DNA of 39,650 nucleotides from an uncultured Candidatus Saccharibacteria bacterium (GCA_964592355.1 CAZQBZ010000002.1:1-39650); one strand, 5' to 3'; counted from the stretch's first letter, positions 6,190 through 21,749 are shown. Numbers and translations are program-made. Notes: generated by a model from the sequence alone, not told the origin.

Positions 6190-7323
6190 ATGGACCAAAA
6201 TATTTTAGGAAAATTTAATTTAGGGAAATCGATTAGCAAGCTGAACTTTTTTAATAATCCGGCCAAGATGTTTTTTCCCCAAAAAATGCTCGGCGTCGAT
6301 ATCGGGTCTGCTTCAATAAAGGTGGTTGAGGTTTCGCGTTGGGGCCAGGGAAAAACCTTGGAAAATTATGGAGAAATAAGATCAGCTTCTCTTTATAAAG
6401 AACCATTCAGGTCCGTGGAAAGGGGCAGTTATTTGCTTTCTAATTATTTTGTTTCAAGAGCAGTTAGAGCTGTTTTAGACGAAGCAAAAATAAAAACAAC
6501 GGCAACTGTTTTTTCTATTCCTGATTTTTCCACATTTTGTGTTTCTTTTGAGTTGCCCCCGATGGGACAAAAAGAAATTTCAGAAGCCATTTATTATAAC
6601 GCTCCTCAGTATATTCCCCTTCCTATTACAGAAACCACATTGGACTGGAAGCTTATAGGGGGAACTCCAGGAGATAAAAAATCGCCACTAAAAATTTTAC
6701 TCGTTGCTATTCCAAATGAAACCGTTCAAGATTATCAGACAATTGCCCAAATGGCAGGACTCGAGCTTTATGCTGTGGAGGCTGAGGTTTTCGGCTTATC
6801 GAGGGTTTTGGCGACAGATAATAAAAAATGCGTTTGCCTTATAGATATTGGCGTGCAAAGCACCACCTTAAACATCGTGGACAAGGGAAATTTAAGAAAA
6901 AGTTATAGTTTTAATTTCGCTGGCTCGCAGCTTACTTTTGCGGTTGCCGGGGCCTTGGGGATGGGAAATGTTGAAGCAGAGGCCGTTAAAAATCAGCAAG
7001 GCCTTTTGCATTCCTCGGAAAACGTGGCAAAAACCCTTTATTTGCTTATAGATCCATTGCTTTTGGAGGTTAAAAAGTTCCTTTCCGATTTTTATCTTGA
7101 ATCAGAAAAAGACGTTGATGAAATTTTACTCACTGGCGGGACTTCAAATTTGCCGGGATTAAAAGCATATTTTGAAGAAGTTTTAAGAAAAAAGGTAGTG
7201 GTGCCAAATTGTTTTTCAGATTTGCTTTATCCCCCGATATTAAGCGATGGCTTGCTTGAAATGTCACCAAGATTTTCGGTTGCAGTGGGAGCGGCTTTAG
7301 GGGGCCTGGAGACGCAGCAGTAG
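6190..7323 (+). CDS. pilM: Type IV pilus assembly protein PilM (actin-like ATPase fold)
   Basis: GVDIGSASIKVVEV phosphate-1-like motif, CLIDIGVQSTTLNIV, and ILLTGGTSNLPGLKAYFEE. It is first in a pilM-N-O gene order. Confidence 0.85.
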   Translation: MDQNILGKFNLGKSISKLNFFNNPAKMFFPQKMLGVDIGSASIKVVEVSRWGQGKTLENYGEIRSASLYKEPFRSVERGSYLLSNYFVSRAVRAVLDEAKIKTTATVFSIPDFSTFCVSFELPPMGQKEISEAIYYNAPQYIPLPITETTLDWKLIGGTPGDKKSPLKILLVAIPNETVQDYQTIAQMAGLELYAVEAEVFGLSRVLATDNKKCVCLIDIGVQSTTLNIVDKGNLRKSYSFNFAGSQLTFAVAGALGMGNVEAEAVKNQQGLLHSSENVAKTLYLLIDPLLLEVKKFLSDFYLESEKDVDEILLTGGTSNLPGLKAYFEEVLRKKVVVPNCFSDLLYPPILSDGLLEMSPRFSVAVGAALGGLETQQ

Positions 7324-7363
7324 TAAAGCAGAAAGCGTGATATAATATAGAAACAGCAAATAA

Positions 7364-8485
7364 ATGGATTTTAGAACCATTTTCCAACTAAGAAATAAAA
7401 AAGTCTGGTGGATAGATGTGATTTTTTATTTTGTCATAGCGTTGCTCACAGCAACTATTATTTGCTATCTTGTCTTTTTGGTTAAAAATATTTTTCAAAG
7501 AAGAGACATAGCCGAGGCTGAATATAAATTAACAACAGTCGGAACCGCCGACCAACTAACTCAAGAGCAAAAAGTAATTTTATACAAAGCCAAAATAAAG
7601 GACTTCGGCAATCTTATTCAAAACCACGAGTTTGCCTCAAATATTTTCTATTTGATGCAAGACAACACTCAGCCGAAAGTATGGTTTTCTCAATTTAATT
7701 TAGACGCAAAGGCAAAACAAGTCCAAGTTAGCGGAATTGCGGAAGACATGGATATGGTGGCAAGGCAAACCTCAACCTTTGAAAAAAATGAATATATTCA
7801 AAAATTTGAAAACCTAAATTCAACATTATCAGAAGACGGAAGGATTGCGTTTAATTTCAGCCTTTCGATGAATCCTAGGATATTCAGTTATGCGGTTAAC
7901 AGGGCAAATCAGGCAGTCCAAGAAGAAAAAGAAAATGTAGTTGTGGTTTCCGGCTCTATTTCTCAGGTTGAAAATCAGCCAGAAGAAGGGTCGTCAGAAA
8001 ATTCTGAGGGATCGACGACCCCTGTAGAGGGAGGAGAGGTTTTGCCCAAGAGCAGCGATAAAATGATTTTTTCTTTTTCCACACCAGTCGGTTCAGAAGA
8101 AATAATCGGACAAATAGACCATACCGGACATACGATTCTGTTAAACTTTACCTCAGGAACAGATATAACCAATTTGACTCCGCTGATAATTATTTCAGAT
8201 AAGGCCAGAGTATATCCAGAAACCGGAGTTCCGCAAAATTTTACCAATCCTATTGACTATCAAGTAACCGCCGAAGACGGAACGACACAAAATTATGTTG
8301 TCAGCGCTCAAATAGTAAAATCGGCACAAGAAATAGCCGAAGAGCAGAAAAAAGAAAAAAATATGGGATTGGTGATATTCCTTTTGATTGTGGCATCTGT
8401 GGTGCTGGTTGCCGTATCCGGCCTGATGGCATTCATATATATAAGAAGAAGACAGAATAAAAAACAAAGAAGCGTCAAAAAATAA
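7364..8485 (+). CDS. PilN-like protein fused to a C-terminal beta-sandwich domain and a second TM anchor
   Basis: N-terminal TM, then a coiled region, then a PilN-like core (VWFSQFNLDAKAKQVQVSGIAEDMDMVARQTSTFEKNEYIQKFENL). An acidic linker leads to an Ig-like module (...NFTNPIDYQVTAEDGTTQNYVVSA). A C-terminal TM is followed by the basic tail RRRQNKKQRSVKK. Confidence 0.55.
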   Translation: MDFRTIFQLRNKKVWWIDVIFYFVIALLTATIICYLVFLVKNIFQRRDIAEAEYKLTTVGTADQLTQEQKVILYKAKIKDFGNLIQNHEFASNIFYLMQDNTQPKVWFSQFNLDAKAKQVQVSGIAEDMDMVARQTSTFEKNEYIQKFENLNSTLSEDGRIAFNFSLSMNPRIFSYAVNRANQAVQEEKENVVVVSGSISQVENQPEEGSSENSEGSTTPVEGGEVLPKSSDKMIFSFSTPVGSEEIIGQIDHTGHTILLNFTSGTDITNLTPLIIISDKARVYPETGVPQNFTNPIDYQVTAEDGTTQNYVVSAQIVKSAQEIAEEQKKEKNMGLVIFLLIVASVVLVAVSGLMAFIYIRRRQNKKQRSVKK

Positions 8486-8487
8486 TT

Positions 8488-9039
8488 ATGCGAATTGATA
8501 AACCAATTACAATAGCCCTGATCCTCTTTGCGATAGTGTTTTTGATATTCTTTTTGGTATACCCAGAGTATGAAACATTTAAAGCCCTTCAACAGGACCT
8601 TGGAATAAAAAGAGCTGAGTACAACGCGGAGTTTGCTTATTACAGCGAGATTACGAGAAACATAGTTGAATTAACCGCCAAGTCAGATAACATAGCCAAA
8701 GTTGACTCTGCTCTGCCGTCAGATCCGGAATTGGGCAGTTTGGTCTATTATATGCAAGACCAGGCATCAAAAAGCGGCCTTGTTTTAAGGAGTCTGTTTT
8801 TGTCAAAAGTTTCGGGTTCGGCGGCCAAAAACACGGTAAAGGATCTTACATTTTCGCTTAATTTGACGGGAAACTATGCTTCCCTCAATCAGTTTATTTC
8901 TTATTTAGAGAATTCTGCAAGGATATTTGAGATTGAAAACATTAACTTCGGATCAGGGGACACTTCAAGGGACACGTCTCAATTCGCCCAGGATAGTATA
9001 TTCAATTTTACAATACAGATTAAAACCTACACTTATTAA
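8488..9039 (+). CDS. pilO: Type IV pilus assembly protein PilO
   Basis: N-terminal TM, a coiled coil, and the PilO-like core FSLNLTGNYASLNQFISYLENSARIFEIENINF. Confidence 0.75.
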   Translation: MRIDKPITIALILFAIVFLIFFLVYPEYETFKALQQDLGIKRAEYNAEFAYYSEITRNIVELTAKSDNIAKVDSALPSDPELGSLVYYMQDQASKSGLVLRSLFLSKVSGSAAKNTVKDLTFSLNLTGNYASLNQFISYLENSARIFEIENINFGSGDTSRDTSQFAQDSIFNFTIQIKTYTY

Positions 9040-9066
9040 AATATATCACTTGGTTAAATTAAACTT

Positions 9067-9588
9067 ATGGCAGTAGTATTCATATCCCCAAAACAAAGAC
9101 AGAGGATGTTTATCACGGGCATAGCCTCCATATTTGGTTTGATTGTTGTGATTATCGCTGCCATAGTGTTTTTTTCTCAACCGGGAGCAGTCGCTCCAGA
9201 ATTAGTTTTTAATAAACCAAAAGTCACAATAGATTTTTCTGTTCTGGACTCCGAACAATTTGGCAGGCTTAATAAATTTGAAAAAATGGAAAACAGATAC
9301 AGCTATGAGGCCACAAAAGGAGAAAATAACGAAAAATCAACGGGATTTATCACCGGTTCATCCATTACCGATGCCAAAAAGAAATTGGAAGACATGGGAT
9401 ACAGAGTTGATAAAATAGAAGAGGTGGACGTTGGCAGAGAAAATCCTTTTGAGCCTTATTATGGGCAAAGTTTAGAGGAAATTATCCAAATTCAAGGAGA
9501 GGAAGGGTCTCCACTGCAGGGATTGGATCAACAGCAGTACGAAGAATATATGCAATATCTTAACGCAATCGAGGGCAGGGAATCTTAA
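9067..9588 (+). CDS. Membrane-anchored hypothetical protein, possibly PilP-like
   Basis: N-terminal TM. Sits between pilO and pilB. The ENPFEPYY motif is reminiscent of the xxPF motif in PilP proteins. Evidence is weak. Confidence 0.3.
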   Translation: MAVVFISPKQRQRMFITGIASIFGLIVVIIAAIVFFSQPGAVAPELVFNKPKVTIDFSVLDSEQFGRLNKFEKMENRYSYEATKGENNEKSTGFITGSSITDAKKKLEDMGYRVDKIEEVDVGRENPFEPYYGQSLEEIIQIQGEEGSPLQGLDQQQYEEYMQYLNAIEGRES

Positions 9589-9608
9589 TAAAATATACCA
9601 AATTTATA

Positions 9609-11345
9609 ATGAAATTATTACAAGAGTTATTTGCAAGCGGACTGATTTCTGAATCCAAAATGGATGAGCTTCAAAAAGAAGTCGAAAAAACTGGCAAACG
9701 CGAGGATGATATTATTTTAGAAAATAAAATTCTTTCAGAGAACGATTTGTTTGACCTAAAAAGCAGGACATTAAGAGTTCCTCTGCAAAAAATCAAGGCC
9801 GAAGAAGTGCCGGTTGATGTTTTGGAAATAGTCCCAGACGAAGCTGCGAACAATTATAAAATGGTGGCTTTTGCCAAAAAGGACAATGTGGTTCAAATAG
9901 GAATGGTTTATCCTGAAAATTTAGCCGCCCAGAATGCTTTGAGGTTTTTGGCCAGCCAACAAAGGTTTTCATATCATGTTTTCCTTATAACTCCGACCAA
10001 TTTTTCGGAGATGCAAAAGCAAAGGAAAAATTTGGCAGCAGAAACCAAAAGAACTTTAGAAGAGCTGGCGCAAGAAAGAAAGAAAAGGCAAGGAGTTAAT
10101 TTAATAGGTCAAGAGATTCCCGATGAGGAGCAGTCAACAATATCAGAGGACGCCCCTGTTATTAAAATGGTGTTCGTGATATTGAGGCATGCCTTAGAAG
10201 CCAAGGCTTCCGATATACACATTGAGCCGAGGAGAGATAAGCTGGATGTAAGATTCAGACTTAACGGAGTTTTAAAATCGAGCCTTACATTGCCGTTAAA
10301 AGTGCACTTGTCTGTTGTTGCCAGAATTAAAATTATGTCCGGGTTGAAAATTGACGAAAGCAGGGTTCCTCAAGATGGAAGGTTTTCAACCAAAATAGAC
10401 GGGGCGAATATAGACTTTAGGGTTGCGACGTTTCCAACGCTTTTTGGAGAAAAGGTGGAGCTTAGAATTTTGGACCCATCTACGGGCTCGAGGACATTTG
10501 ATGACTTGGGGTTATCGGGAAGGAATTTGGAAGTTATAAAAGAAGCGATTAAAAAACCCTATGGACTTATATTGTTTACCGGTCCAACCGGCTCAGGAAA
10601 AACAACGACCCAATACGCCATATTGAGAATTTTGAATGACGAAAAAGTAAATATAGTCACTATAGAAGACCCTATTGAATATTCTATTGACGGAATAAAC
10701 CAGTCTCAAATAAAACCGGATATCGGGTATACTTTTGCCTCGGGGCTTCGCCAAATTCTTAGGCAAGACCCAAATATTATAATGGTCGGAGAAATTAGAG
10801 ATGAAGAAACGGCCGATCTTGTCATGAACGCCGCTTTAACGGGGCATATTGTGCTTTCAACGTTGCACACAAACTCATCTATTGGTGTGGTCGCCAGGCT
10901 TATAGATATGAAAGTGAGGCCATTTTTGATACCATCAACATTAAGGATAGTTATTGCTCAGAGGTTAGTGAGAACACTTTGTCCCAATTGCAAGATAAAA
11001 ATTAAACCGGAAGAAAAAATAGCAAAATTTATTACAGATAAGGTGGGGAACATGCCGCCCTCGGAGCGGGAAAAAATAAAAATTCCTGACCCATTTAATA
11101 TTTATGCTGCTAAGGGGTGCGAAGAATGCTCCTTTACGGGATATTCGGATAGAACCGCATTGTTTGAAGTTTTATCTATAAACGATGAAATTTCCGAGCT
11201 TATTCTAAAAGATCCTTCTGAACTTGCTATATTTAAAGCAGCTCAAAAACAGGGAATGATAACAATGGAGCAGGACGGTATTTTGAAAGTTTTGAAAGGA
11301 GAAACCTCGATAGACGAAGTGGTCAGGGTGACAACAGAGAGATAG
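9609..11345 (+). CDS. pilB: Type IV pilus assembly (extension) ATPase PilB, GspE family
   Basis: N-terminal T2SSE_N-like domain. Walker A GPTGSGKTTT, Asp box IVTIEDPIEY, Walker B IIMVGEIRD, His box VLSTLHTN. Tetracysteine CPNC...CEEC. Confidence 0.95.
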   Translation: MKLLQELFASGLISESKMDELQKEVEKTGKREDDIILENKILSENDLFDLKSRTLRVPLQKIKAEEVPVDVLEIVPDEAANNYKMVAFAKKDNVVQIGMVYPENLAAQNALRFLASQQRFSYHVFLITPTNFSEMQKQRKNLAAETKRTLEELAQERKKRQGVNLIGQEIPDEEQSTISEDAPVIKMVFVILRHALEAKASDIHIEPRRDKLDVRFRLNGVLKSSLTLPLKVHLSVVARIKIMSGLKIDESRVPQDGRFSTKIDGANIDFRVATFPTLFGEKVELRILDPSTGSRTFDDLGLSGRNLEVIKEAIKKPYGLILFTGPTGSGKTTTQYAILRILNDEKVNIVTIEDPIEYSIDGINQSQIKPDIGYTFASGLRQILRQDPNIIMVGEIRDEETADLVMNAALTGHIVLSTLHTNSSIGVVARLIDMKVRPFLIPSTLRIVIAQRLVRTLCPNCKIKIKPEEKIAKFITDKVGNMPPSEREKIKIPDPFNIYAAKGCEECSFTGYSDRTALFEVLSINDEISELILKDPSELAIFKAAQKQGMITMEQDGILKVLKGETSIDEVVRVTTER

Positions 11346-11403
11346 TTAAACCGAGGGATTATGTCGGCGCGAATAAATTTATGTTTTTTATTTAAAAATA
11401 ATT

Positions 11404-12468
11404 ATGGATTATTTAGAGTATTTTAAAAAACTTTTGGATATAGTTGTAAAGCAAGAGGCCTCTGACCTTGATATTTCAGTTGGACATGTTCCAAATATCA
11501 GAATTACCGGACAATTGGTTCCCCTTGGGCAGGAGGGCATAATATTGCCCAAAGACGCAGAAGGATTGGCAGCTGCCGTAATGTCGGAAAGCCAGTACAA
11601 GCGCTTTATGGAAGATAAAGAAATTGACTTTTCTTATCAGCATGAAGAAAAGGGGAGATTTCGCGCAAACGTTTTTTTTCAGCGTGGGAACATAAGCTTG
11701 GCGTTGCGTTTTATTCCGGCCAAGATTCGCACAATAGAAGAATTAAATTTGCCCCCAATTCTGCATAATTTTGCAAGCAGGACGCAGGGATTGGTGCTTG
11801 TTACAGGAGCCACAAGCCAAGGAAAATCCACGACATTGGCGGCAATGGTAAACGAAATAAACATGACCAGGGCCGTGCATATAATCTCCATTGAAGACCC
11901 GATAGAATATACATATCCCATCAGCCGCGCGATTGTAGACCAAAGGGAAGTTGGAATAGATACCTTTAATTTTAACAATGCTTTAAGGTCCAGCCTCCGC
12001 CAAAATCCCGATGTGATTATGGTTGGAGAGATGAGAGATTTGGAAACAATAGGCACCACAATAACCGCGGCCGAAACGGGACACTTGGTTTTTGCGACAC
12101 TGCATACCAATTCGGCGGCGCAAACAATACACAGAATAGTAGATGTTTTTCCGGCAGAGCAACAAGAACAGATAAGGTTTCAACTATCCAGTTCTCTTTT
12201 AGGAATAGTTTCCCAAAGGCTTGTTCCGAGAATCCAGGGCGGATTTATTCCTGCCTGCGAAATCATGGTATGCAATAATGCAGTGGGAACATTAATTAGA
12301 GAAAATAAAGTGCATGAAATACCGGCTGTCATAGAGACTTCATCAAAAGAAGGCATGGTGTCTTTTTCCAGGGCATTGGTGGATCTTGCCAGAAAAAAAG
12401 AAATATCAATGAAGTCGGCAATGGATTATTCGCTTAATCCTTCCGAAGTTAAAAATTTATTAAAGTAA
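11404..12468 (+). CDS. pilT: Type IV pilus retraction ATPase PilT
   Basis: 354 aa. Walker A GATSQGKSTT, IISIEDPIEY, VIMVGEMRD, VFATLHTNSAAQTIHRIVDVF. A GTLIRE variant of the PilT AIRNLIRE signature. Confidence 0.9.
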   Translation: MDYLEYFKKLLDIVVKQEASDLDISVGHVPNIRITGQLVPLGQEGIILPKDAEGLAAAVMSESQYKRFMEDKEIDFSYQHEEKGRFRANVFFQRGNISLALRFIPAKIRTIEELNLPPILHNFASRTQGLVLVTGATSQGKSTTLAAMVNEINMTRAVHIISIEDPIEYTYPISRAIVDQREVGIDTFNFNNALRSSLRQNPDVIMVGEMRDLETIGTTITAAETGHLVFATLHTNSAAQTIHRIVDVFPAEQQEQIRFQLSSSLLGIVSQRLVPRIQGGFIPACEIMVCNNAVGTLIRENKVHEIPAVIETSSKEGMVSFSRALVDLARKKEISMKSAMDYSLNPSEVKNLLK

Positions 12469-12474
12469 TGAATG

Positions 12475-12546
12475 CGTCATTGCGAGGCCACAGGCCGAAG
12501 CAATCTAAGCTCGATGTTGAGATTGCTTCGCTGATGCTCGCAATGA
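12475..12546. repeat. Nested GC-rich palindromic element in the pilT-pilC spacer
   Basis: Outer arms GTCATTGCGAG (12475-12485) and CTCGCAATGAC (12536-12546). Inner arms CGAAGCAATCT (12495-12505) and AGATTGCTTCG (12519-12529). Confidence 0.7.
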
Positions 12547-12555
12547 CAGAATAAT

Positions 12556-13764
12556 TTGAAGTATATCTATCAAGCCAGAACCAAGGAGGGAAAGATTGAG
12601 ACAGGAACTGTTGAAGCTTCAACCAGAGAGACAGCTGCTCTTTTGTTGCAAAAATACGGCATATTCCCGACATCACTCAAAGAGGAGCAGCCATTGCTTT
12701 CCAAACTGAAAGACATTCCTATTTTTGAAAGAGTTTCTAAAAAAGACCTTGCTATTTTTTCAAGGCAACTCGCAGTTTTGCTTCAATCAAGGGTTCCGGT
12801 AACGCAAAGCTTGAAAAGCCTTGCCGTGCAAACAAAAAAGAAAAGCTTTAAGGAAAAAATAGTCAAAATATCTCAACTCGTGGAGGAGGGAAATTCATTG
12901 TCTGATGCTTTTGGAAATTATCCCGAAGTTTTTAATGTATTTTATGTGAGCCTTGTCAAAACAGGAGAAGCGTCGGGAAAAATATCAGACTCTTTATATT
13001 ATTTGTCTGAACACTTGGAGAGAGAGGCTGATATATCCGCCCAAATAAGGGGAGCCATGATCTACCCGATATTCGTTATTTTGGTTTTGTTTGTGGTGGT
13101 GCTGATAATAATGTTTTTCGTGATGCCAAGGGTTACAGACCTGCTCAGGGAAACAACAACCAATCCTCCGCTTATGACAAAGCTGGCAATAGGATTTTAT
13201 GACTTTTTGTTCCACTATGGATGGATAATTGTGGTGGCGTTTGCGTCTCTTGTGGTATTCATAATATATTATTTTACAACCCCGAAGGGTAAAGAAAATT
13301 ATGACAGGTTGATTTTGAAAATCCCATTTTTGGACAGTTTTATGAAAAAGATATTCCTTATCAGGTTCGCCGAAAACATTTCAACGCTTATAGGCGCGGG
13401 GTTATCGATTAACAACGCTTTAAAAATTACAAAAGACACGGTTTCAAATTATATTTATAAACAAATAATCGGCGAAACGGAGCAAAGGGTTTCTGAGGGA
13501 GAAAAAATATCTTCTGTTTTGGTGAAATATCCAGATTATGCTCCGCCCTTTGTGGTGCAAATGATACAAGTTGGAGAAGATACTGGAAGACTGGATAAAA
13601 ACCTTATGGAAATCGTGAATTTTTACAACAAAGAGGTAAAAAGAACCGTGGAGGTTTTTACTGCGATGCTGGAGCCCATATTGATAATCTTTTTGGGAGT
13701 TATAGTGGCATTGCTTGCTGTAACGGTTTTGGAGCCATTGTATGGGTCGTTAAGCACGCTTTAA
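12556..13764 (+). CDS. pilC: Type IV pilus platform protein PilC (GspF family)
   Basis: TTG start. N-terminus YIYQARTKEGKIETGTVEA. Two GspF repeats (SRQLAVLLQSRVP...SLSDAF and AENISTLIGAGLSI...GEKISSVL). Three TM helices. Confidence 0.92.
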   Translation: MKYIYQARTKEGKIETGTVEASTRETAALLLQKYGIFPTSLKEEQPLLSKLKDIPIFERVSKKDLAIFSRQLAVLLQSRVPVTQSLKSLAVQTKKKSFKEKIVKISQLVEEGNSLSDAFGNYPEVFNVFYVSLVKTGEASGKISDSLYYLSEHLEREADISAQIRGAMIYPIFVILVLFVVVLIIMFFVMPRVTDLLRETTTNPPLMTKLAIGFYDFLFHYGWIIVVAFASLVVFIIYYFTTPKGKENYDRLILKIPFLDSFMKKIFLIRFAENISTLIGAGLSINNALKITKDTVSNYIYKQIIGETEQRVSEGEKISSVLVKYPDYAPPFVVQMIQVGEDTGRLDKNLMEIVNFYNKEVKRTVEVFTAMLEPILIIFLGVIVALLAVTVLEPLYGSLSTL

Positions 13765-13858: not shown

Positions 13859-14290
13859 ATGAAAAAAGAAAAAGGTTTTACGCTTGTCGAGCTTGTGATA
13901 ACCATTGCCATTATTGGGATTTTATCAACGATTGTCATGTTCAGCGTAGTGCAATATGTGAATAAGAGTAAGGATGCTAATATAGTGGGAAACTTGGCCA
14001 TTTTGGTTTCGTCCGGAGAAGTGTATTATAACAGCAATCAGGATTATGACGGATTTTGCGCTTCCAGCGTTGTCACAAACTCGTTTGCAGAAATGCCAAA
14101 AGTGGGAAGCTCTACTTATGGCTGTATCGAGGGGTATGACAATGATTCTTGGGTTGCCTACGCCCAAATGTTTTCCAATAATGATTATGCTTATTGCGTT
14201 GACAGCAGGGGCGTTAAGAGGAGGATTGATTGGACAAGCGTGGGTTCTATAAATCAAAACTCTTCGGAGTGCCCGGCCGCCGCCAGTTAA
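13859..14290 (+). CDS. Type IV pilin (prepilin with class III signal peptide)
   Basis: MKKEKG|FTLVELVITIAIIGILSTIV, giving a G-1/F+1/E+5 cleavage-methylation motif. Four Cys in the C-terminal half. Three N-X-S/T sequons. Confidence 0.9.
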   Translation: MKKEKGFTLVELVITIAIIGILSTIVMFSVVQYVNKSKDANIVGNLAILVSSGEVYYNSNQDYDGFCASSVVTNSFAEMPKVGSSTYGCIEGYDNDSWVAYAQMFSNNDYAYCVDSRGVKRRIDWTSVGSINQNSSECPAAAS

Positions 14291-14366: not shown

Positions 14367-14396
14367 TTGACAACAGAATAATTTATAAAATATAAT
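14367..14396 (+). promoter_or_regulatory. Consensus sigma70-like promoter for the second pilin gene
   Basis: TTGACA (14367-14372), 18 nt, TATAAT (14391-14396). A second TATAAT lies at 14401-14406 within a tandem ATATAATAAA repeat. Confidence 0.55.
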
Positions 14397-14419: not shown

Positions 14420-14842
14420 ATGAAAACACAAAAAGGTTTTACAATTATTGAGTTGATTGTGGTTATCGCCATTATCGCGGTTTTGGCCACAATCGTTATG
14501 ATTAACGTCACCCAATATATCGCCAAAGGAAAAGACGCTTCCATAAAAGGAAACATGTCCTCTATCACCACATCCGCCGCGGCTTATTATGATTCACAAA
14601 GCCCAAACACCTATACAAATTTGCAGAATAACCCGGTTGTCATAGCAGCCAACACTCAGATAAATAAAGCTTCCGGAGAATTGAATTATCTTGCAGCCAA
14701 TGATTCAAGCTGGTGCGCTTGCGCCAATTTGGTAGCAAATAGCGCCAATTATTACTGTGTTGACTCAACTGGATTGAAAGAAGAGGCAGCAGGAGATTGC
14801 GCCACAACTACACTTTGCGACACTACTCAAGCTTGTCACTAA
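14420..14842 (+). CDS. Type IV pilin, candidate major pilin
   Basis: MKTQKG|FTIIELIVVIAIIAVLATIV. Six Cys and three N-X-S/T sequons. It has its own consensus promoter and a strong terminator. Confidence 0.9.
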   Translation: MKTQKGFTIIELIVVIAIIAVLATIVMINVTQYIAKGKDASIKGNMSSITTSAAAYYDSQSPNTYTNLQNNPVVIAANTQINKASGELNYLAANDSSWCACANLVANSANYYCVDSTGLKEEAAGDCATTTLCDTTQACH

Positions 14843-14856
14843 ACAGAGATTTTAAA

Positions 14857-14887
14857 ACACCTGTCGCATTGCGACGGGTGTTTTTTT
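14857..14887 (+). terminator. Rho-independent terminator after pilin 2
   Basis: ACACCTGTCGC-ATT-GCGACGGGTG followed by TTTTTTT (14881-14887). Confidence 0.8.
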
Positions 14888-14917: not shown

Positions 14918-14966
14918 TCCGTAGGCGTCGGCCGTAAAATCCGCGGAAGTCGCGACTCCCGCGGGC
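14918..14966. repeat. GC-rich palindromic element just upstream of the oligosaccharyltransferase gene
   Basis: CCGCGGAAGTCGCGACTCCCGCGG (14941-14964) is a near-perfect palindrome. It is related to the element at 20137-20167. Confidence 0.65.
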
Positions 14967-14974
14967 TAAAAAAA

Positions 14975-17410
14975 ATGAAGACCATAGATAAAATTCGTGG
15001 AGCATCAATTATTGTGGGATTTTTAAAAAGAAATATAGTATTTATCTTTTTAGTTGCCATTTTTATTTTTGCATTAGCCATAAGAATATTGCCATCTTGG
15101 AGCATTGTTTTTTCCGATCCCGTGAAATATTCTTACGACGACGGAATTTATCATATGAGGCTTGTGGAAAATATGCTTTTGGGGGGCCATAGCAGAATTT
15201 ATTTTGACCCGTTTACCAACTTTCCCCATGGTTCATATATGCACTTTACACCTCTTTTTGATTGGATTTTTGCTGCGGTTGTTTGGATTATTTCATTGGG
15301 AAAACCAACTTTGGATTCCATAAATAAAATAGCCCCTTTTGTGCCGGCTGTTATGGGTGCCGTCATAATTTTGCCGGTTTATTTTCTGCACAAAGAGATT
15401 TTTAAAAATAAATTGTCGGCTATTTTAGCGTCATTTTTTGTCGTGATTTCGCCGGTTTTTTTGTTCAGATCTGTTTTGGGGTATGCTGACCACCACGTTT
15501 TGGAAGTGTTGCTTTCTACCCTTTCAATATTGTTTTTAGTTTTGGCCTTACAACACGGCAGGGCCAAGCAAGACAAAAAATTCTGGATATTGGCAGTTTT
15601 ATGCGGATTTTCTTTAGGGCTTTATTTTTTGGCATGGACGGGAGCCACGATGTTTTTATTTTTATTTTTTTGTTTTCTGGTTTTTTATTATTTATCGCAA
15701 TATTTTTTTGGACACAGGGAAAACTGGATTTTGTGGCTTGGTTTAACGATATTTTTTGTTTCTTTCTTAATGATTTTGCCGTTTTTCGGCCATCCGGATT
15801 TATTTAATACATATATGTACAATATAGTGCATGTATTGGCGTTTTCTTTGGGCGTGGGCGCATTTTTTATGCTTTTGCTTATTGATAGGCTATTTTTAGA
15901 AAAGGGAATCAATCCCAAACTGATGCCCTTGTTTTTTGCGGCGGCCATAATATTGCTTTTAGTTTCAATTAAAATATTTTTTCCGTTTTTGTTCGGTTAT
16001 TTAATTTCCGGCGTCAAGGAAGTAAATACGGGAATGGTGGAATATGCTATGGCCAGGGAGCTTGTCAGCGAAATGCAGCCGTCTTCGTTTGGGGGATTGG
16101 CGCAGGGATTTCAAATGGTGTTTATAGGTTCCTTGATGGCGATAATCTTTGCGGTTTATGAGTTTGTAAAGACAAAAAAGCCGGAATTTCTATTTTTGTC
16201 CATATGGGCGATATTCATACTGCTGATGACGGGAATGATTCCGCTTTTCGGCCAGACCAGGTTTGCTTATTATCTTGCCCCTATCTTTTCAATATTGCTT
16301 GCCTATCTGTTGTCAGAGATGATTGCATTCGGATGGGAGTCTCTCCAAAAAGCCAAAGAATTGTCGAACGACAGTCCATATAAAAAGTATGTCAATTACG
16401 GGGGCTTGTCTATAATTTTTATCGCTTTTTTTGTCTTGCTTTATCCTTTTCCATTTAATTTGGATTCGTCGTTTCCAAAAAGCCTTCCATACATTTTGCA
16501 ACCTGTCGTATATAATTCTAAGCTTATGCCGGCAAGCAAAGACAGGTATGAATTAACAACTTGGTTAAAAAACAATACGCCAGACCCGGGGGTTGACTAC
16601 TATGGGTTTTATCAAGAGCCAGGCATTAACAAAGAAACCGGCGAGGTCAATGATTATGAATATCCTGATTCTTCTTACGGCGTTCTGGCCGTGTGGGATT
16701 TGGGGCATATGATTACTTATTATGGTCACAGAATGGCAATTGCAAATCCTTTTCAGGATGGCATCGGACGAAAAAAATCTGACGGCTCAATAATTCCAGG
16801 ATGGACAACTTTCTTTTTGGAAAAGAATGAAAAAACGGCTACGCAGTATTTAGACGACTTAAAAGCAAGATATGTGATTGCCGATTCGGCTTCGGCCAAT
16901 ACAGATGGAATCTATCAGCACATGATAAAGTGGCAACAGGATAATCTTGATGGTTTTTTGGCCCAAGACGGAAAAAGCATAGATATGGACAGATATTATG
17001 GCTCAATGATTGCAAAACTATCCCTGTTTGACGGAAAAAAAACAAATATTGACGGGTTGGATATCCCGGCGCTAAGCCATTTTAGGCTGGTTTATGAATC
17101 TGTCACAACAGATTTTTCATTAAAAATAGACGATAATCAGGATATTAAAAAATATAAGATATTTGAATATGTTAAAGGGGCCGTTATCAGCGGATCGGTT
17201 ATTCCCGGAAGCGAGGTTGAAATTTCCATTAATATAAAAACAAACCAGGGCAGGGATTTTACATATAAGAACAGCGCAATTTTTCAGAAAGAAGGATTTG
17301 AATTTACGGTTCCCTACGCCGGAACATATACAATTAAAACGGGCCGCCAAACAAAAGAGGTAGAGGTTTTGGAGGCCGACATATTAAACGGAGAAACAAT
17401 TAAGCTATGA
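14975..17410 (+). CDS. STT3/AglB/PglB-family oligosaccharyltransferase (GT-C fold)
   Basis: 811 aa with many N-terminal TM helices and a soluble C-terminal domain. Motifs: YSYDDGIYHMR (first-loop acidic motif), GYADHHVLEV (second acidic motif), AVWDLGHMITYYG (WWDYG-type motif), then ANPFQDG. The stop overlaps the next start (ATGA). Confidence 0.8.
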   Translation: MKTIDKIRGASIIVGFLKRNIVFIFLVAIFIFALAIRILPSWSIVFSDPVKYSYDDGIYHMRLVENMLLGGHSRIYFDPFTNFPHGSYMHFTPLFDWIFAAVVWIISLGKPTLDSINKIAPFVPAVMGAVIILPVYFLHKEIFKNKLSAILASFFVVISPVFLFRSVLGYADHHVLEVLLSTLSILFLVLALQHGRAKQDKKFWILAVLCGFSLGLYFLAWTGATMFLFLFFCFLVFYYLSQYFFGHRENWILWLGLTIFFVSFLMILPFFGHPDLFNTYMYNIVHVLAFSLGVGAFFMLLLIDRLFLEKGINPKLMPLFFAAAIILLLVSIKIFFPFLFGYLISGVKEVNTGMVEYAMARELVSEMQPSSFGGLAQGFQMVFIGSLMAIIFAVYEFVKTKKPEFLFLSIWAIFILLMTGMIPLFGQTRFAYYLAPIFSILLAYLLSEMIAFGWESLQKAKELSNDSPYKKYVNYGGLSIIFIAFFVLLYPFPFNLDSSFPKSLPYILQPVVYNSKLMPASKDRYELTTWLKNNTPDPGVDYYGFYQEPGINKETGEVNDYEYPDSSYGVLAVWDLGHMITYYGHRMAIANPFQDGIGRKKSDGSIIPGWTTFFLEKNEKTATQYLDDLKARYVIADSASANTDGIYQHMIKWQQDNLDGFLAQDGKSIDMDRYYGSMIAKLSLFDGKKTNIDGLDIPALSHFRLVYESVTTDFSLKIDDNQDIKKYKIFEYVKGAVISGSVIPGSEVEISINIKTNQGRDFTYKNSAIFQKEGFEFTVPYAGTYTIKTGRQTKEVEVLEADILNGETIKL

Positions 17411-18099
17411 AGCTGTCAATAATAATTCCCGCATATAACGAGGAAAAAACAATAGAAGAAATCATTAAAAGGGTTTCCCGGGTTTTATTGCCTGTCTCCA
17501 AAGAGATAATAGCGGTTGACGATAAGTCAACAGATAAGACTTTGGAAATTTTGGAAGGATTGCGGGATAAATACAGCCTCGTTATTGTCAGGCATTCCGA
17601 AAATTCGGGAAAAGGGTCGGCAATACGATCAGGCCTTAAAAAGGCATCGGGGGATTTTGTTATAATACAGGATGCCGACCTGGAATATAACCCGGAGGAT
17701 TACGAAAAATTATTGAAGCCATTTTTGGAAAATAATGCCCAGGTTGTTTACGGGTCTCGCATCATGGGTGGCAAAAAACGCGGCAAGCTTGCGTTTTATC
17801 TTGGAGGAAGGGGTGTAACCTTAATGACAAATATAATTTGCGGAATAAATATCACTGATGAGCCGACTTGTTATAAGGTTTTTAAAAAGGATTTGTTGGA
17901 TTCGCTTGATTTGCAGTCCAAGGGTTTTGAATTCTGTCCCGAGGTGACGGCTAAAATCGCCAAACGCAAGATTAAAATTTTTGAAGTGCCGATTTCATAC
18001 AATCCCAGGGGAAAGTCAGAGGGCAAAAAGATAAAATGGAGGGATGGATTTGTGGCGATATGGACTTTGTTAAAATGCAGGTTTTGGTATAATAAATAA
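17407..18099 (+). CDS. GT2-family polyprenyl-phosphate glycosyltransferase (DPM1/GtrB-like)
   Basis: LSIIIPAYNEE, AVDDKSTDKT, VIIQDADLEYNPEDY. Soluble, 230 aa. Confidence 0.85.
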   Translation: MKLSIIIPAYNEEKTIEEIIKRVSRVLLPVSKEIIAVDDKSTDKTLEILEGLRDKYSLVIVRHSENSGKGSAIRSGLKKASGDFVIIQDADLEYNPEDYEKLLKPFLENNAQVVYGSRIMGGKKRGKLAFYLGGRGVTLMTNIICGINITDEPTCYKVFKKDLLDSLDLQSKGFEFCPEVTAKIAKRKIKIFEVPISYNPRGKSEGKKIKWRDGFVAIWTLLKCRFWYNK

Positions 18100-18897
18100 A
18101 TGGATTTGATTTTGTTTTCGGGGTATTTTTTTGTTTTTATTCTGGGCTTGTGCATAGGCAGTTTTTTAAACTGCGTTATATACAGGATGGAGCAGGACAA
18201 AAAAATAACAGGACGAAGTTTTTGCCCCCATTGCAAGAAAACTTTAAGATGGATAGACTTGATTCCTGTTTTAAGTTTTATTTTTTTGGGCGGAAAATGC
18301 AGGCATTGCAAGAATAAAATCTCATGGCAATATCCTGCGGTTGAGCTGGCAACGGGACTGTTATTCCTGTTGATTTTTAATTATGTTATTGCGGGTTTGA
18401 CCCGCAATCCAGGCGACTGGACTCCAGCTTTCGCGGGAATGGCATTTTATTTTTACATTGTAGCTTCGCTCGTCGTCATTTTCGTTTACGACCTGAAACA
18501 TTATTTGATTCCTGATAAAATTTTAATTCCCGCCACGATAATTGCCATAGCTTATATAATTTTAACGTCTCAAAATTTCTTAAACTATCTTTTTGCATCC
18601 GTTGCGGCTTCCGGATTTTTTTTGGCAATATATTTGTTTTCGGGTGGCAGAGCAATAGGCTTTGGCGATGTAAAACTGGCGGTTTTAATGGGTTTTTTGC
18701 TGGGATTTCCCGATATTCTGGTGGCCCTATTCTTTGCTTTTGTAATTGGTGCTATAATAGGAGTAATATCCATACTTTTAAATAAGAAAAATTTAAAAAG
18801 TGAAATTCCGTTTGGTCCGTTTCTGATTTTTGGCACCTTCCTTGCGCTTTTTTTCGGCCAGCAAATAATCGTCTGGTATTTCAATATTTTTGCATAA
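18100..18897 (+). CDS. pilD: Prepilin peptidase / N-methyltransferase PilD (A24 family)
   Basis: GSFLNCVIYR; CPHC...CRHC zinc motif; catalytic Asp motifs VYDLKHYLIPD and GFGDVKLAVLMG. The start abuts the GT2 stop. Confidence 0.92.
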   Translation: MDLILFSGYFFVFILGLCIGSFLNCVIYRMEQDKKITGRSFCPHCKKTLRWIDLIPVLSFIFLGGKCRHCKNKISWQYPAVELATGLLFLLIFNYVIAGLTRNPGDWTPAFAGMAFYFYIVASLVVIFVYDLKHYLIPDKILIPATIIAIAYIILTSQNFLNYLFASVAASGFFLAIYLFSGGRAIGFGDVKLAVLMGFLLGFPDILVALFFAFVIGAIIGVISILLNKKNLKSEIPFGPFLIFGTFLALFFGQQIIVWYFNIFA

Positions 18898-19544
18898 TGT
18901 CATTGAATAAAAACAAAAAATTTAGCAAGGGCTCAACCTTAATAGAGGTTATTGTTTCTATTTCCATTATTGCAATATTTTCTGTAATTATTGTCACGGA
19001 TTTTCCAAAAATAAAAAGGCAATTTGCGATTTCCAGGGCTTCTTACGCGGTGTCGCAATCAGTGAGAAAGGCCGAGGACCTTGGTTTCTCCGGGGCGCAA
19101 GTTACAGATAGCGATGGCGACATAGTGGAGACAAATGGATACGGATTTTATATCAATACTGCCGAAAATGAAGAGGAGCATATAATTTATGCCGACACTG
19201 ATGGCGGAGAAGATCAGAGATTCAGCGGAGGAAGCAGCTGCTCTAATACTCAAATTCCATCCGGAGAAGATTGCATTGTCGAGCTGACTAATATTGCGGA
19301 GTCAGAACAAGAAGTTTTTATAAAAGGGGTTTATAGCCTTACCGCCTGCGGAAATAGCGACATCACCCTTTGTCCAAGAACAGAATGGGTAAGTATAAAT
19401 TTTATGCCCCCGAATCCCACGGTAAAGATCACCAATGACCTGGGAGAAACCGAAACTAAAATAGGCATTGTTTTGGGGGTCAAAAATGACGAGGCGGAAA
19501 GGGTTATTTTTGTAAATTCAACAGGTTTGATTTATGTCAAATAA
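18897..19544 (+). CDS. Minor pilin / pseudopilin-like protein
   Basis: FSKG|STLIEVIVSISIIAIFSVIIV prepilin-type N-terminus with E+5. The ATG overlaps the pilD stop (TAATG). Confidence 0.75.
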   Translation: MSLNKNKKFSKGSTLIEVIVSISIIAIFSVIIVTDFPKIKRQFAISRASYAVSQSVRKAEDLGFSGAQVTDSDGDIVETNGYGFYINTAENEEEHIIYADTDGGEDQRFSGGSSCSNTQIPSGEDCIVELTNIAESEQEVFIKGVYSLTACGNSDITLCPRTEWVSINFMPPNPTVKITNDLGETETKIGIVLGVKNDEAERVIFVNSTGLIYVK

Positions 19545-20109
19545 TTCAAATAAAAACAACTCCAGAGGTTTTACTTTAATAGAACTTATTATATCTATTG
19601 TTGTTTTGTCTGTTGCTGTGATAGGGGCGTACAATGCTTTCACCACAATGGATATTTTAACCGCCAGTTCCACTGACAGGTTTGTGGCGGCATATTTGGC
19701 TCAGGAGGGAATAGAAATAGTAAGAAATATACGAGACACCAATTGGATACGCAATGATGATTGGAGAGAGGGCCTTTATGAAGAAGGGGTTGTAGACTGC
19801 ACCACAAATGGATGCCAGGCCGATTATAAAACCTTTGGCGAGTCTTCAACTCCGCTCGTGGCATACGCCGGTCAAAATTTATATATTGACGAGAATGGGT
19901 TTTATAACTACGCCTCGGGGACGCAGACAAAGTTCAGGAGAAAGATAGTTATAATTCCCATGCAGACGCTGGAAGAAAAAGACGACATACTTAGGGTTAT
20001 AGTGACAGTTTATTGGGATGAAAAGGCCAACATTTTCAGTTCTAGTCCATGCGCCAACGAGGCTGATTGCAGCATAGAGGCCGAAGAATATTTATATAAT
20101 TGGTATTAA
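19534..20109 (+). CDS. Minor pilin, PilV-like
   Basis: NSRG|FTLIELIISIVVLSVAVIGAYNAF prepilin N-terminus. Overlaps the previous gene by 11 nt. Confidence 0.75.
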   Translation: MSNNSNKNNSRGFTLIELIISIVVLSVAVIGAYNAFTTMDILTASSTDRFVAAYLAQEGIEIVRNIRDTNWIRNDDWREGLYEEGVVDCTTNGCQADYKTFGESSTPLVAYAGQNLYIDENGFYNYASGTQTKFRRKIVIIPMQTLEEKDDILRVIVTVYWDEKANIFSSSPCANEADCSIEAEEYLYNWY

Positions 20110-20117
20110 AAAAGTTA

Positions 20118-20167
20118 TAGACGCACGACGTCTGTCAAAAATCCGCCCGAGTTGCGACTTGGCGGGA
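20118..20167. repeat. GC-rich palindromic elements upstream of the third minor pilin gene
   Basis: TAGACGCACGACGTCT (20118-20133) is the reverse complement of the 29000-29015 hairpin. AAAATCCGCCCGAGTTGCGACTTGGCGGGA resembles 14937-14966. Confidence 0.65.
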
Positions 20168-20173
20168 AATGTG

Positions 20174-20824
20174 ATGAATAACAAAGGTTTCACACTTATA
20201 GAATTGATCGTTGTAATGTCTGTTTTTATGCTTATAGTTGCTGTTGCGATCGCGATTTTTCTTTCAATAATATCAAGCCAAAGAAGAATTTTAGCCCAAG
20301 AACAAATGCTCAGCCAGGTCAGTTATGCCATGGAGTATATGTCAAAAGGCCTTAGAATGGCGCAAAAAGATGAGGACGGAGTTTGCCTTGTGCACACTGA
20401 CAGCAATGGCGAGGTTACGCAAAGTTTTCCAGGATATATGTATTTATATACAAGACCAGATTCTCAGACTTCTGTGTATAAAGGAATTAAATTCATAAAC
20501 GCGTCTAATGATGCCGCCTGCCAAGAGTTTTTTTTAGCCGACGGCGATGGAAGCAATAATACCATAAAAGAGCTTAAAGATTCCACAAGCGACAATGACG
20601 CCTCCCTTCTGACAGCAGATAAATATAACATCAATTATTTCAGATATAGCATTAATGGAGGAAGCGGATTGAGCTCAGAGGGAATATATGGAGCCTCAGA
20701 AGACAACACATTGCAACCAAGGGTTACCATAATTATGGGTTTTGAATTGCCTGGAGACGAGACCCAGCCTGAAATTAAAATCCAGACAACAGTTTCGCAA
20801 AGAAATTTAAATGTTTCCCAATAA
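20174..20824 (+). CDS. Minor pilin, PilW-like
   Basis: MNNKG|FTLIELIVVMSVFMLIVAVAIAIF. The ORF track starts at 20159 on a non-ATG codon; I prefer the ATG at 20174. Confidence 0.7.
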   Translation: MNNKGFTLIELIVVMSVFMLIVAVAIAIFLSIISSQRRILAQEQMLSQVSYAMEYMSKGLRMAQKDEDGVCLVHTDSNGEVTQSFPGYMYLYTRPDSQTSVYKGIKFINASNDAACQEFFLADGDGSNNTIKELKDSTSDNDASLLTADKYNINYFRYSINGGSGLSSEGIYGASEDNTLQPRVTIIMGFELPGDETQPEIKIQTTVSQRNLNVSQ

Positions 20825-21749
20825 AACTTCAAAAATAAATAAGGATCAAAAGGGAGTTTCGCTTATTATTTCTTTTTTCATAATGGTGATTATTGTTGCC
20901 ATTGTTTTAGCAATTACAACTTTGCTTTATAATGAAATAAAGATGATAAGAAATATTGGAAATTCGGTTGTGGCTTTTTATGCGGCCGACAGCGGGATTG
21001 AAAAGGTGCTTTATTATGACAGAAAGGTGATCCCTGTCGGGAGCAGAGGGCTATGCTCTATGGTTGAATATAATGCAACGACAAATGACACAGCTTGCCC
21101 GACCAAGGCTCAGATTTCAAGCATCAATTCGGCTCTTAATTGTAACCAGGTTCCGGGAGTTGATTTTAAAGTTATTAACGATGCGACAAAAACAGAAGGA
21201 TGCGATCCGGAAGTATGCAATAACTGCACGATCACATTCGCCACCGATTTCCCCTCAGAAACCGCAAATAATGGAAAAAAATATACCGTATCCGCAAGGG
21301 TGGCGCCGAATTCCGAAGGTGAGATAGAACTTACAATAGATTCTTTGGGCGAATACAAAAGGTTGACCAGAAAAGTTGAGTTGTTTAATGCCGGAACGAC
21401 AGCTCAAGACCTTTTGGCCATAACAGGAGCTTATGCGGAGCCGTTGTCATATCCTGTCGCAAGCTGTACAGCCGGCCAAGGCGTAAACATTGTGGTCAGG
21501 GCTAAATCGGTGAATGTCATCAGCAATGCTTCAGCTTATATTAAAACCTCATGGGATCAAGACTATAGCACAATACCATCGGATAGGATTGTCAGTTTGA
21601 TGCTTTCAGAAGGAACCATCAATGATGGAGAATTTTCGGCAATATGGTGCGGGCCGGAGGGAAGCTATTATGTGGACGTAGTTGTTACCGACGAAGCCGG
21701 ATATTCTGTGAGCGTGGAAAACATTCAACCATTTTATTTTGAGTGGTAA
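20811..21749 (+). CDS. PilX-like minor pilin / pilus-associated protein
   Basis: DQKG|VSLIISFFIMVIIVAIVLAI is a pilin-like hydrophobic N-terminus without E+5, as in PilX-type proteins. Overlaps the previous gene by 14 nt. Confidence 0.6.
   Translation: MFPNKTSKINKDQKGVSLIISFFIMVIIVAIVLAITTLLYNEIKMIRNIGNSVVAFYAADSGIEKVLYYDRKVIPVGSRGLCSMVEYNATTNDTACPTKAQISSINSALNCNQVPGVDFKVINDATKTEGCDPEVCNNCTITFATDFPSETANNGKKYTVSARVAPNSEGEIELTIDSLGEYKRLTRKVELFNAGTTAQDLLAITGAYAEPLSYPVASCTAGQGVNIVVRAKSVNVISNASAYIKTSWDQDYSTIPSDRIVSLMLSEGTINDGEFSAIWCGPEGSYYVDVVVTDEAGYSVSVENIQPFYFEW

Follow-up and report, generated by a model that had tools for sequence, protein, structure and literature searches.

RESULTS

An oligosaccharyltransferase gene within a type IV pilus operon

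We analysed a 39,650-nt stretch of DNA from an uncultured bacterium (GCA_964592355.1 CAZQBZ010000002.1:1-39650; hereafter the window), in which the gene for a predicted oligosaccharyltransferase (OST) and that for a family 2 glycosyltransferase (GT2) lie inside a type IV pilus operon, between the major pilin genes and the gene for prepilin peptidase. The OST gene (14975..17410, + strand) encodes an AglB/STT3-family protein of 811 amino acids (aa), with a multi-helix membrane domain and external globular domains. It is followed by the GT2 gene (17407..18099, +), whose 230-aa product falls in the class of polyprenyl-phosphate glycosyltransferases that includes dolichol-phosphate mannose synthase (DPMS), AglJ, GtrB and ArnC. 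Next comes pilD (18100..18897, +), encoding a prepilin peptidase of family A24 (Pfam A24_N_bact, 2e-33; Peptidase_A24, 5.2e-16), which carries the bacterial N-terminal Cys-rich domain and, in its translation, the GFGD motif. Four minor-pilin-like genes complete the series (18897-19544, 19534-20109, 20159-20824 and 20811-21749, all +); the first three have N_methyl matches, and their order is kept in relatives.

At the OST/GT2 junction, the TGA stop codon of the OST gene overlaps the GT2 start codon in the sequence ATGA (17407-17410). The TAA of the GT2 gene (18097-18099) abuts the start codon of pilD (ATG at 18100), and pilD ends in TAATG (18895-18899), its TAA (18895-18897) giving the final A to the ATG of the first minor pilin gene at 18897. 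The open reading frame (ORF) coordinates and all three gene junctions given in an initial annotation of this DNA were borne out when the sequence was read.

Two major pilin genes precede the OST, and both products are candidate acceptors. Pilin 1 (13859..14290, +) has the class III signal MKKEKG|FTLVEL (Pfam N_methyl, 1.9e-09) and pilin 2 (14420..14842, +) the signal MKTQKG|FTIIEL (N_methyl, 1.3e-08). Upstream of pilin 2 lies a consensus sigma-70-type promoter (14367..14396, +), identified by pattern match only, which agrees with the consensus at 12 of 12 positions (TTGACA-18-TATAAT). Directly 3′ of pilin 2 is a hairpin resembling an intrinsic terminator (14855..14887, +), with a stem of 10-13 bp, an AUU loop and a run of seven U residues. 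The spacer between pilin 2 and the OST, 132 nt long, holds this terminator together with a second, GC-rich hairpin predicted by folding (14940..14965, +), the 3′ end of which is 10 nt before the OST start codon. When folded in silico, the segment 14843-14975 has a minimum free energy of -43.1 kcal/mol (z = -3.7 versus shuffles).

The initial annotation had proposed that pilins, OST, GT2 and PilD are co-expressed as one unit. The adjacency of the genes stands, but a strong terminator follows pilin 2, and a single simple transcript covering both the pilins and the OST-GT2-pilD block is therefore improbable. Given the promoter before pilin 2 and the terminator after it, the pilins are probably expressed separately and at a high level, and the OST-GT2-pilD-minor pilin block would need read-through or a promoter of its own.

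The pilus machinery is encoded further upstream by pilM, pilN, pilO, an unnamed ORF (orf173), pilB, pilT and pilC (6190..13764, +), in an order common to ∼80 Paceibacteria loci. The first three were recognized by Pfam (PilM_2, PilN, PilO). PilB, PilT and PilC were assigned through their orthologues in a metagenome locus, L163 (Pfam T2SSE, T2SSE and T2SSF), which show 69-78% tblastn identity to the window. The PilN homolog (7364-8485) contains an additional Ig-like domain, DUF5018, at residues 228-317. Scans of the window for tRNA genes and Rfam families gave no matches.

Both the host and the operon are bacterial. Among the gene products of the window are a sigma-70 factor, an NAD-dependent LigA, FtsW/RodA and PilMNOBTC, in keeping with the initial annotation, and the operon has PilM/N/O, PilB, PilT, PilC, pilins with a G|F-T-x-x-E processing site and a PilD with the bacterial N-terminal domain, all of which are expected of a bacterial type IV pilus. 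The host is a Paceibacteria-type member of the Patescibacteria, or Candidate Phyla Radiation (CPR), an ultra-small bacterium.

The 811-aa protein is an AglB-type OST

The initial annotation assigned the 811-aa protein to the STT3 family from three motifs, YSYDDGIYHMR, GYADHHVLEV and AVWDLGHMITYYG. All three are present in the translation of 14975-17410, and they align with the first DXD, the D-H-H and the WWDYG motifs of Archaeoglobus fulgidus AglB-L (AfAglB). Pfam matches to STT3 (9.7e-28), AglB_core-like (8.3e-21) and AglB_L1 (2.7e-16) all lie above their cut-offs, and the protein scores 537 bits against NCBIfam TIGR04154, a subfamily of archaeosortase A system-associated OSTs with a cut-off of 450. 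No archaeosortase was matched among the window ORFs scanned with Pfam and NCBIfam. The best solved relative is AfAglB itself (E = 9e-72), and the match is full length, covering the membrane domain and both external domains. Public annotation pipelines already label the protein an oligosaccharyl transferase.

We then compared an AlphaFold2 model of the protein, built on 28 homologs (pLDDT 88.5), with solved structures using Foldseek. The best match was 7E9S (TM 0.80, E = 1.7e-40), within a leading set of 7E9S, 3WAK, 3WAJ and 5GMY (TM 0.74-0.80, E = 1e-37 to 1e-40), and all of the top 20 matches are OST catalytic subunits. Weaker ranks were taken by eukaryotic STT3 (∼1e-17 to 1e-14), PglB (1e-10 to 1e-11) and the C-mannosyltransferase DPY19 (1e-8 to 1e-9), and PMT and Emb enzymes appeared only at 5e-5 or worse. 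The initial annotation had called for profile searches and structural superposition, and had named a best match to another GT-C family as the outcome that would count against it. Because AglB ranks first in both the hidden Markov model (HMM) and the fold comparisons, that outcome is not what we observe; ArnT, PMT and other GT-C identities are ruled out by the HMM results and the fold ranking. Judged by its sequence and modelled fold, the ORF is a full-length AglB/STT3-family OST.

Catalytic residues are conserved and the Ser/Thr pocket is altered

Alignment of 28 family members shows no variation at D55, D56, D172, H173, H174, E177 and E366, and almost none at R429. D56 aligns with AfAglB D47, in the first acidic DXD-type motif of external loop 1 (EL1), and D172-H173-H174 with the N-D-H-H segment of AfAglB, the second DXD/DxH motif, which is common to the archaeal relatives. 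E366 aligns with the Glu of TIxE, the EL5 catalytic residue, in >60 archaeal and Chloroflexota sequences. Its flanks differ from TIxE, reading L-V-S-E-M in the window OST and x-[GSA]-E-M across the clade. On this pattern of conservation, the OST looks catalytically competent.

The WWDYG, TIxE and DK motifs make up the Ser/Thr site (PMC8342417). In the window OST, the loop equivalent to WWDYG reads V573-W574-D575-L576-G577-H578. Across 64 clade members, W never occurs at position 1 (V/R/S/T/N and others are found) but occupies position 2 in 61. Position 3 is acidic throughout (D in 59, E in 5), and at position 4, where Y does not occur, 59 members have V/L/F/I/M. A W-D-x-G core is hence retained, with the canonical pentapeptide replaced by x-W-D-Φ-G-H. 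The Lys of the archaeal DK motif (D-x-x-M-A-x-G-K-F-x-A-M) aligns with I/V/G/S/Y/A in 11 sequences of the bacterial clade, and the archaeal and Chloroflexota relatives examined keep canonical or near-canonical WWDYG, TIxE and DK motifs. Of the two features that the initial annotation proposed to look for, the catalytic acidic residues are therefore present and invariant, whereas the WWDYG pocket is lacking in its canonical form: the loop is there, but degenerate. With the pocket degenerate and the DK lysine gone, canonical N-X-S/T recognition is not to be assumed. The DK/MI motif marks subtypes rather than the family, so its loss limits claims about acceptor specificity more than it limits the homology.

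In one relative, from a Staskawiczbacteria metagenome-assembled genome (MAG; locus L003), Cys stands where the W-D-x-G loop otherwise has its conserved Trp, giving A-R-C-D-V-G-H. The motif may be relaxed further in this protein, or the change may be a sequencing variant.

The partner GT2 resembles polyprenyl-phosphate glycosyltransferases

The GT2 matches Pfam Glycos_transf_2 (PF00535, 6.9e-37), and its translation contains the acidic motif QDADLE. Its best match in the Protein Data Bank (PDB) is the Dol-P-Man synthase of Pyrococcus furiosus (5MLZ, E = 1.1e-30, residues 1-215), with GtrB and ArnC ranking next. Each of these enzymes is a polyprenyl-phosphate glycosyltransferase, in line with the initial description of the protein as DPM1-like. 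The GT2 has no counterpart to the membrane domain at the C-terminus of the P. furiosus protein. The best NCBIfam model is AglJ (TIGR04182), at 112 bits against a cut-off of 325; on this score the protein is AglJ-like and no AglJ orthologue. Euryarchaeal AglBs use lipid donors of the monophosphate type (PMC8342417), and a DPMS-type GT2 fits as a partner for such an enzyme.

Homologs of the GT2 at 55-60% identity number in the thousands and occur in bacteria and DPANN archaea. So widespread a family points to a common enzyme that was recruited to the OST, not imported with it. Joint transfer of OST and GT2 from an archaeon was considered and rejected: the GT2 found 3′ of AglB in Methanocellales is only ∼30% identical.

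The OST-GT2 pair is a conserved insertion into the operon

A search of a collection of 5.8 billion proteins (E ≤ 1e-10) returned 86 homologs of the OST. About 74 of these, at 37-85% identity and with one labelled Candidatus Paceibacterota, form a bacterial clade. In a set of 185,579 species, roughly a dozen of the representative genomes carry this clade (Staskawiczbacteria, Nealsonbacteria, Paceibacterota and generic Patescibacteria MAGs). The next relatives are AglBs of Methanocellales and Methanosarcinales (∼32% identity) and a Chloroflexota/Dehalococcoidia clade (28-30%). In a neighbor-joining (NJ) tree, the bacterial OST clade is monophyletic in 100 of 100 bootstraps and divides into a pilus-embedded subclade (the window and loci L001, L003 and L005-L008) and a non-pilus subclade (L004 and L009-L011). 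From its archaeal affinity in these comparisons, we infer that the OST is horizontally acquired.

Using tblastn, we found 7 of 12 genome loci to share the gene order pilC-pilins-OST-GT2-(optional gene)-pilD-minor pilins-ligA, which recurs in L163 and ∼20 further metagenome loci. In two loci, L167 and L189, the OST-GT2 pair is inverted but remains a neighbour of pilD, in L189 with a pilin gene on its other side. The OST-GT2-pilD linkage, a survey of which the initial annotation had recommended, is thus conserved over many independent assemblies. Among 80 Paceibacteria pilus operons anchored on pilC, 77 are without the pair and run directly from the pilins to pilD, which identifies OST-GT2 as an insertion into a conserved operon.

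The optional gene is of two kinds. One encodes a class I S-adenosylmethionine (SAM) methyltransferase and lies in the OST/GT2 interval (L005 2463-2957, L006 8459-9088, L167 9478-10038); its product could methylate either the sugar or the pilin. The other encodes a secreted or membrane-anchored calcineurin-like metallophosphoesterase and lies in the GT2/pilD interval (L003 9260-10132, L007 9115-10008).

OSTs of the non-pilus subclade occur in L162 (P0043, a 276-kb Paceibacterota contig) and L168 (P0058), within a cluster of the sugar-biosynthesis type that includes an epimerase, an HldE-like kinase/nucleotidyltransferase, SIS and phosphatase domains, two radical SAM/SPASM proteins, a split transketolase and a GT2. 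Directly after the OST of L162 comes a gene for signal peptidase I (S26). A second bacterial clade of AglB-type proteins (28-30% identity to the window OST) comprises L054 and L060-L081, from Chloroflexota/Dehalococcoidia MAGs, and L072, from a Nitrospirota MAG. This clade is monophyletic in the NJ tree and has fully canonical WWDYGH, TIxE and DK motifs; rooting on an Archaeoglobaceae sequence places it as the sister of the Patescibacteria clade.

Major pilins of OST-containing operons are rich in Asn

The initial annotation drew attention to three N-X-S/T sequons in each of the two pilins. The count is correct (N35, N95 and N134 in pilin 1; N29, N45 and N94 in pilin 2; precursor numbering throughout), but it does not amount to enrichment. 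With 2000 shuffles per pilin, 1.9 and 2.4 sequons are expected (P = 0.29 and 0.45), and neither of the two window pilins shows an excess.

Comparison across genomes gave a different picture. Asn makes up 10.9% of major pilins in 23 non-redundant OST-containing operons, compared to 5.4% in 59 OST-free operons (P = 7e-11), and it ranks first for enrichment among the 20 amino acids. It does so in the closest clade alone as well, at 10.3 versus 7.6% (P = 0.002), and in the genome-based set, 1 of 59 OST-free loci falls within the Asn range of the six OST-containing loci. No such shift was seen in PilM/B/T/C/D or in the minor pilins of OST-containing operons, and that in LigA is small (4.6 versus 3.8%, P = 0.02). 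GC content did not differ between the two sets. These controls, together with a regression on GC content, rule out that the rise in pilin Asn stems from GC or from the composition of the genome as a whole.

Sequons follow the same trend. Their density in pilins is 2.4 per 100 aa in OST-containing operons versus 1.0 in OST-free operons. Relative to within-protein shuffles, 124 are observed versus 103 expected in the OST-containing set (z = 2.4), compared to 115 versus 117 in the OST-free set. Their placement is distinctive as well. A sequon occurs ≤7 residues upstream of a conserved aromatic-x-x-Cys strand in 22 of 42 pilins of OST-containing operons, versus 8 of 70 of OST-free operons (Fisher, 5e-6). 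N94-D-S of pilin 2 is counted among these strand-proximal sequons. N95-D-S of pilin 1 occupies the same aligned position, just before a W-x-x-(C/A) strand, and is outside the anchor used for that count. Around pilin Asn residues (-4 to +4), an acceptor motif is not evident beyond a weak excess of Ser at +2; there is no D/E at -2 as in PglB substrates.

Other surface proteins of the window also contain sequons. Two convergent Cys-rich paralogs (28088-28858, +, and 29020-29796, -), 85% identical, have hydrophobic, signal-peptide-like N-termini and no Pfam match. The initial annotation gave seven sequons for each; the counts are in fact 7 and 9. The paralogs could be additional glycosylation substrates, although sequons shared by proteins so alike carry little weight. 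Two giant proteins, of 1929 aa (21759-27548) and 1665 aa (34162-39159), match Pfam Big_3_5, bMG3/MG2, DUF2341 and Laminin_G_3. The 1929-aa protein contains 42 sequons, slightly more than in shuffles (z = 2.2), and its gene lies in a stretch with a GC content of 0.45-0.47, above the rest of the window, and with a negative GC skew relative to it.

DISCUSSION

Proposed N-glycosylation of the major pilins

The correlation across genomes suggests N-glycosylation of the pilins as the best-supported reading of these data. In our judgment, it is somewhat probable that an AglB-type OST and a polyprenyl-phosphate glycosyltransferase have been wired into the pilus operon to glycosylate the major pilins on Asn. 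This reading draws on the gene identities, the conservation of catalytic residues, the conserved operon position, the kinship of the OST with archaeal enzymes and an enrichment of Asn and sequons that is specific to pilins. At the cytoplasmic face of the membrane, the GT2 would take a sugar from its nucleotide-activated form and attach it to a polyprenyl monophosphate carrier. The lipid-linked sugar would then be flipped across the membrane, either as such or after extension by enzymes encoded elsewhere. At the outer face, the AglB-type enzyme, if active as its conserved residues suggest, would transfer the sugar to Asn side chains of the major pilins, in an acceptor context that may include the strand-proximal sequons. 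At this stage the pilins would be anchored in the membrane by their N-terminal helix, PilD removing the leader peptide, and the pilus would then be assembled from glycosylated subunits.

Several observations weigh against this reading. Reverse (S/T-X-N) and spaced (N-X-X-S/T) control motifs are elevated in the pilins too, which indicates that most of the sequon excess is an effect of Asn composition, and Ser or Thr occupies +2 for only ∼24% of pilin Asn, with a background of 20%. The Asn and sequon comparisons are correlational and ignore shared ancestry. The Ser/Thr-binding pocket is changed across the whole bacterial clade, in both the x-W-D-Φ-G loop and the lost DK lysine. Neither a flippase nor additional enzymes for glycan synthesis are encoded in the window, and a terminator stands between the pilin genes and the OST. 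Finally, OSTs of the sister subclade occur in non-pilus contexts (sugar-biosynthesis clusters, a giant surface protein as neighbour), so the enzyme family is not intrinsically specific for pilins.

This last point bears on the idea of a general N-glycosylation system for surface proteins, with many secreted or membrane targets (the giant Ig-repeat and Cys-rich proteins) and with pilins modified at most incidentally; the place in the pilus operon would then be the landing site of a mobile pair or reflect a shared expression programme. Archaeal AglBs are generalists, and this alternative rests partly on that fact. It also gains from the sister-subclade relatives in sugar-biosynthesis clusters, beside signal peptidase I or beside a 2312-aa surface protein, and from the sequon-rich extracytoplasmic proteins of the window, namely the 1929-aa protein (42 sequons, z = 2.2) and the Cys-rich paralogs (7 and 9). 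However, the pilus position has been kept in ∼27 loci, through OST divergence down to ∼41% identity and including inverted arrangements; the Asn enrichment is confined to the major pilins and is absent from minor pilins and machinery; and the sequon hot-spot recurs in the pilins. We regard a general system as rather unlikely.

The altered pocket raises a further alternative, a neofunctionalised GT-C enzyme that no longer carries out sequon-dependent transfer to Asn and instead directs the polyprenyl-phosphate sugar made by the GT2 to another residue, a relaxed motif, or a lipid or cell-wall acceptor. In 64 of 64 clade members with a locatable motif, the pocket departs from the canonical form (x-W-D-Φ-G-H, with the DK lysine gone), and the +2 preference for Ser/Thr around pilin Asn is weak, both of which such an enzyme would accommodate. 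Yet the catalytic and metal-binding residues, W574-D575 and the entire AglB architecture are conserved, Asn alone tracks the presence of the OST in pilins, and sequons are modestly but significantly above shuffle expectation, so that a change of function on this scale appears quite improbable.

An assembly artefact, with archaeal DNA wrongly joined to a bacterial contig, or a pseudogene in decay could be entertained for the OST because its closest relatives outside the bacteria are AglBs of methanogens and few Patescibacteria carry it, but the uniform GC content across the block, the start and stop codons that overlap those of bacterial genes, the recurrence of the arrangement in many independent assemblies and samples, and an intact ORF whose catalytic residues are invariant in 28 homologs rule out a chimeric assembly or pseudogene, and the conserved synteny leaves this reading effectively refuted.

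Within pilin N-glycosylation, a more specific version can be formulated, namely a minimal, re-tooled pathway in which one DPMS-like GT2 and one OST put a monosaccharide or very short glycan from polyprenyl monophosphate directly onto pilin Asn, the rebuilt x-W-D-Φ-G pocket without its DK lysine relaxing or changing the N-X-S/T rule. We hold this to be possible, though unlikely on balance. A relaxed or changed rule would explain why pilin Asn is doubled without a strong Ser/Thr signature at +2. Such a pathway, if real, would make this the first bacterial type IV pilus with N-glycosylation and would define a new class of OST specificity, in organisms that rely on pili to attach to their hosts.

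The glycosylation known from bacterial type IV pilins is O-linked, and the modification of pilin-like subunits on Asn by AglB is regarded as a trait of archaea. In the present case, an AglB of archaeal type has become fixed in a bacterial pilus operon, in a lineage with host-attachment pili. If the enzyme is active, N-linked pilin glycosylation reaches into the Bacteria, and the locus would be a natural case of cross-domain transfer wired into a resident machine. It would also offer a compact two-gene combination of OST and lipid-sugar synthase for glyco-engineering, possibly with altered acceptor rules, and a concrete hypothesis of how cell surfaces may vary among uncultivated episymbionts. 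The genome comparison supplies candidate target sites, N94 of pilin 2 and N95 of pilin 1. CPR pili drive attachment to host cells, as shown for Saccharibacteria (PMC12206443). In the full-text literature, with subscription journals outside coverage, we found no published account of an OST/AglB/STT3 N-glycosylation system in CPR/Patescibacteria or in type IV pili.

Comparison with known systems

The Campylobacter pgl locus likewise employs a bacterial STT3-family OST, PglB, which acts at the outer face of the cytoplasmic membrane with a lipid-linked donor. PglB belongs to a separate lineage, however, being only a distant match to the window OST (Foldseek E ∼1e-10 to 1e-11, 14% identity), and it differs in having a canonical WWDYG, an MI motif and no link to pili. 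Its sequon is the extended D/E-X-N-X-S/T. The pgl locus is a large cluster of several glycosyltransferases making an undecaprenyl-diphosphate-linked heptasaccharide, unlike the two-gene cassette described here. PglB is itself thought to be derived from archaea (PMC4973528).

A similar genomic logic, with a membrane glycosyltransferase that uses a lipid-linked donor encoded beside the pilin, is familiar from pilin O-glycosylation. The enzymes concerned are TfpO/PilO and the GT-C arabinosyltransferase TfpW in Pseudomonas aeruginosa, and PglL in Neisseria; TfpW, as a GT-C enzyme with a polyprenyl-phosphate monosaccharide donor, is one instance. TfpO, TfpW and PglL form O-links to Ser/Thr and are unrelated to STT3/AglB, being of the Wzy_C type or of a different GT-C family, whereas the enzyme found here is a homolog of Asn-directed OSTs.

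For the GT2, the reference proteins are the polyprenyl-phosphate glycosyltransferases P. furiosus DPMS (5MLZ), Synechocystis GtrB (5EKP), ArnC and Haloferax volcanii AglJ. Its alignment with 5MLZ covers the catalytic domain and extends past it, through residue 215 of 230. Unlike P. furiosus DPMS, it ends at 230 aa and lacks the C-terminal transmembrane domain.

The closest parallel is N-glycosylation of archaeal pilins and archaellins by AglB (Methanococcus, Haloferax, Sulfolobus; AfAglB-L structures 3WAJ, 5GMY and 7E9S). The window OST falls in the same subfamily (TIGR04154), at 26% identity and TM 0.80, and the long form of archaeal AglB likewise has AglB_core and AglB_L1 external domains. 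In both systems, an A24 peptidase processes subunits that are anchored in the membrane and bear class III signal peptides, and in both a DPMS/AglJ-like GT2 supplies a polyprenyl monophosphate donor, as predicted here. The differences are equally clear. The WWDYG and DK motifs are degenerate throughout the clade, the carrier is presumably a bacterial polyprenol and not dolichol, and no archaeosortase context was seen among the scanned window ORFs. The pilus is built on a bacterial PilD (A24_N_bact), PilT, PilMNO and G|FTxxE pilins, and, unlike in the archaeal system, the OST gene is physically located within the pilus operon.

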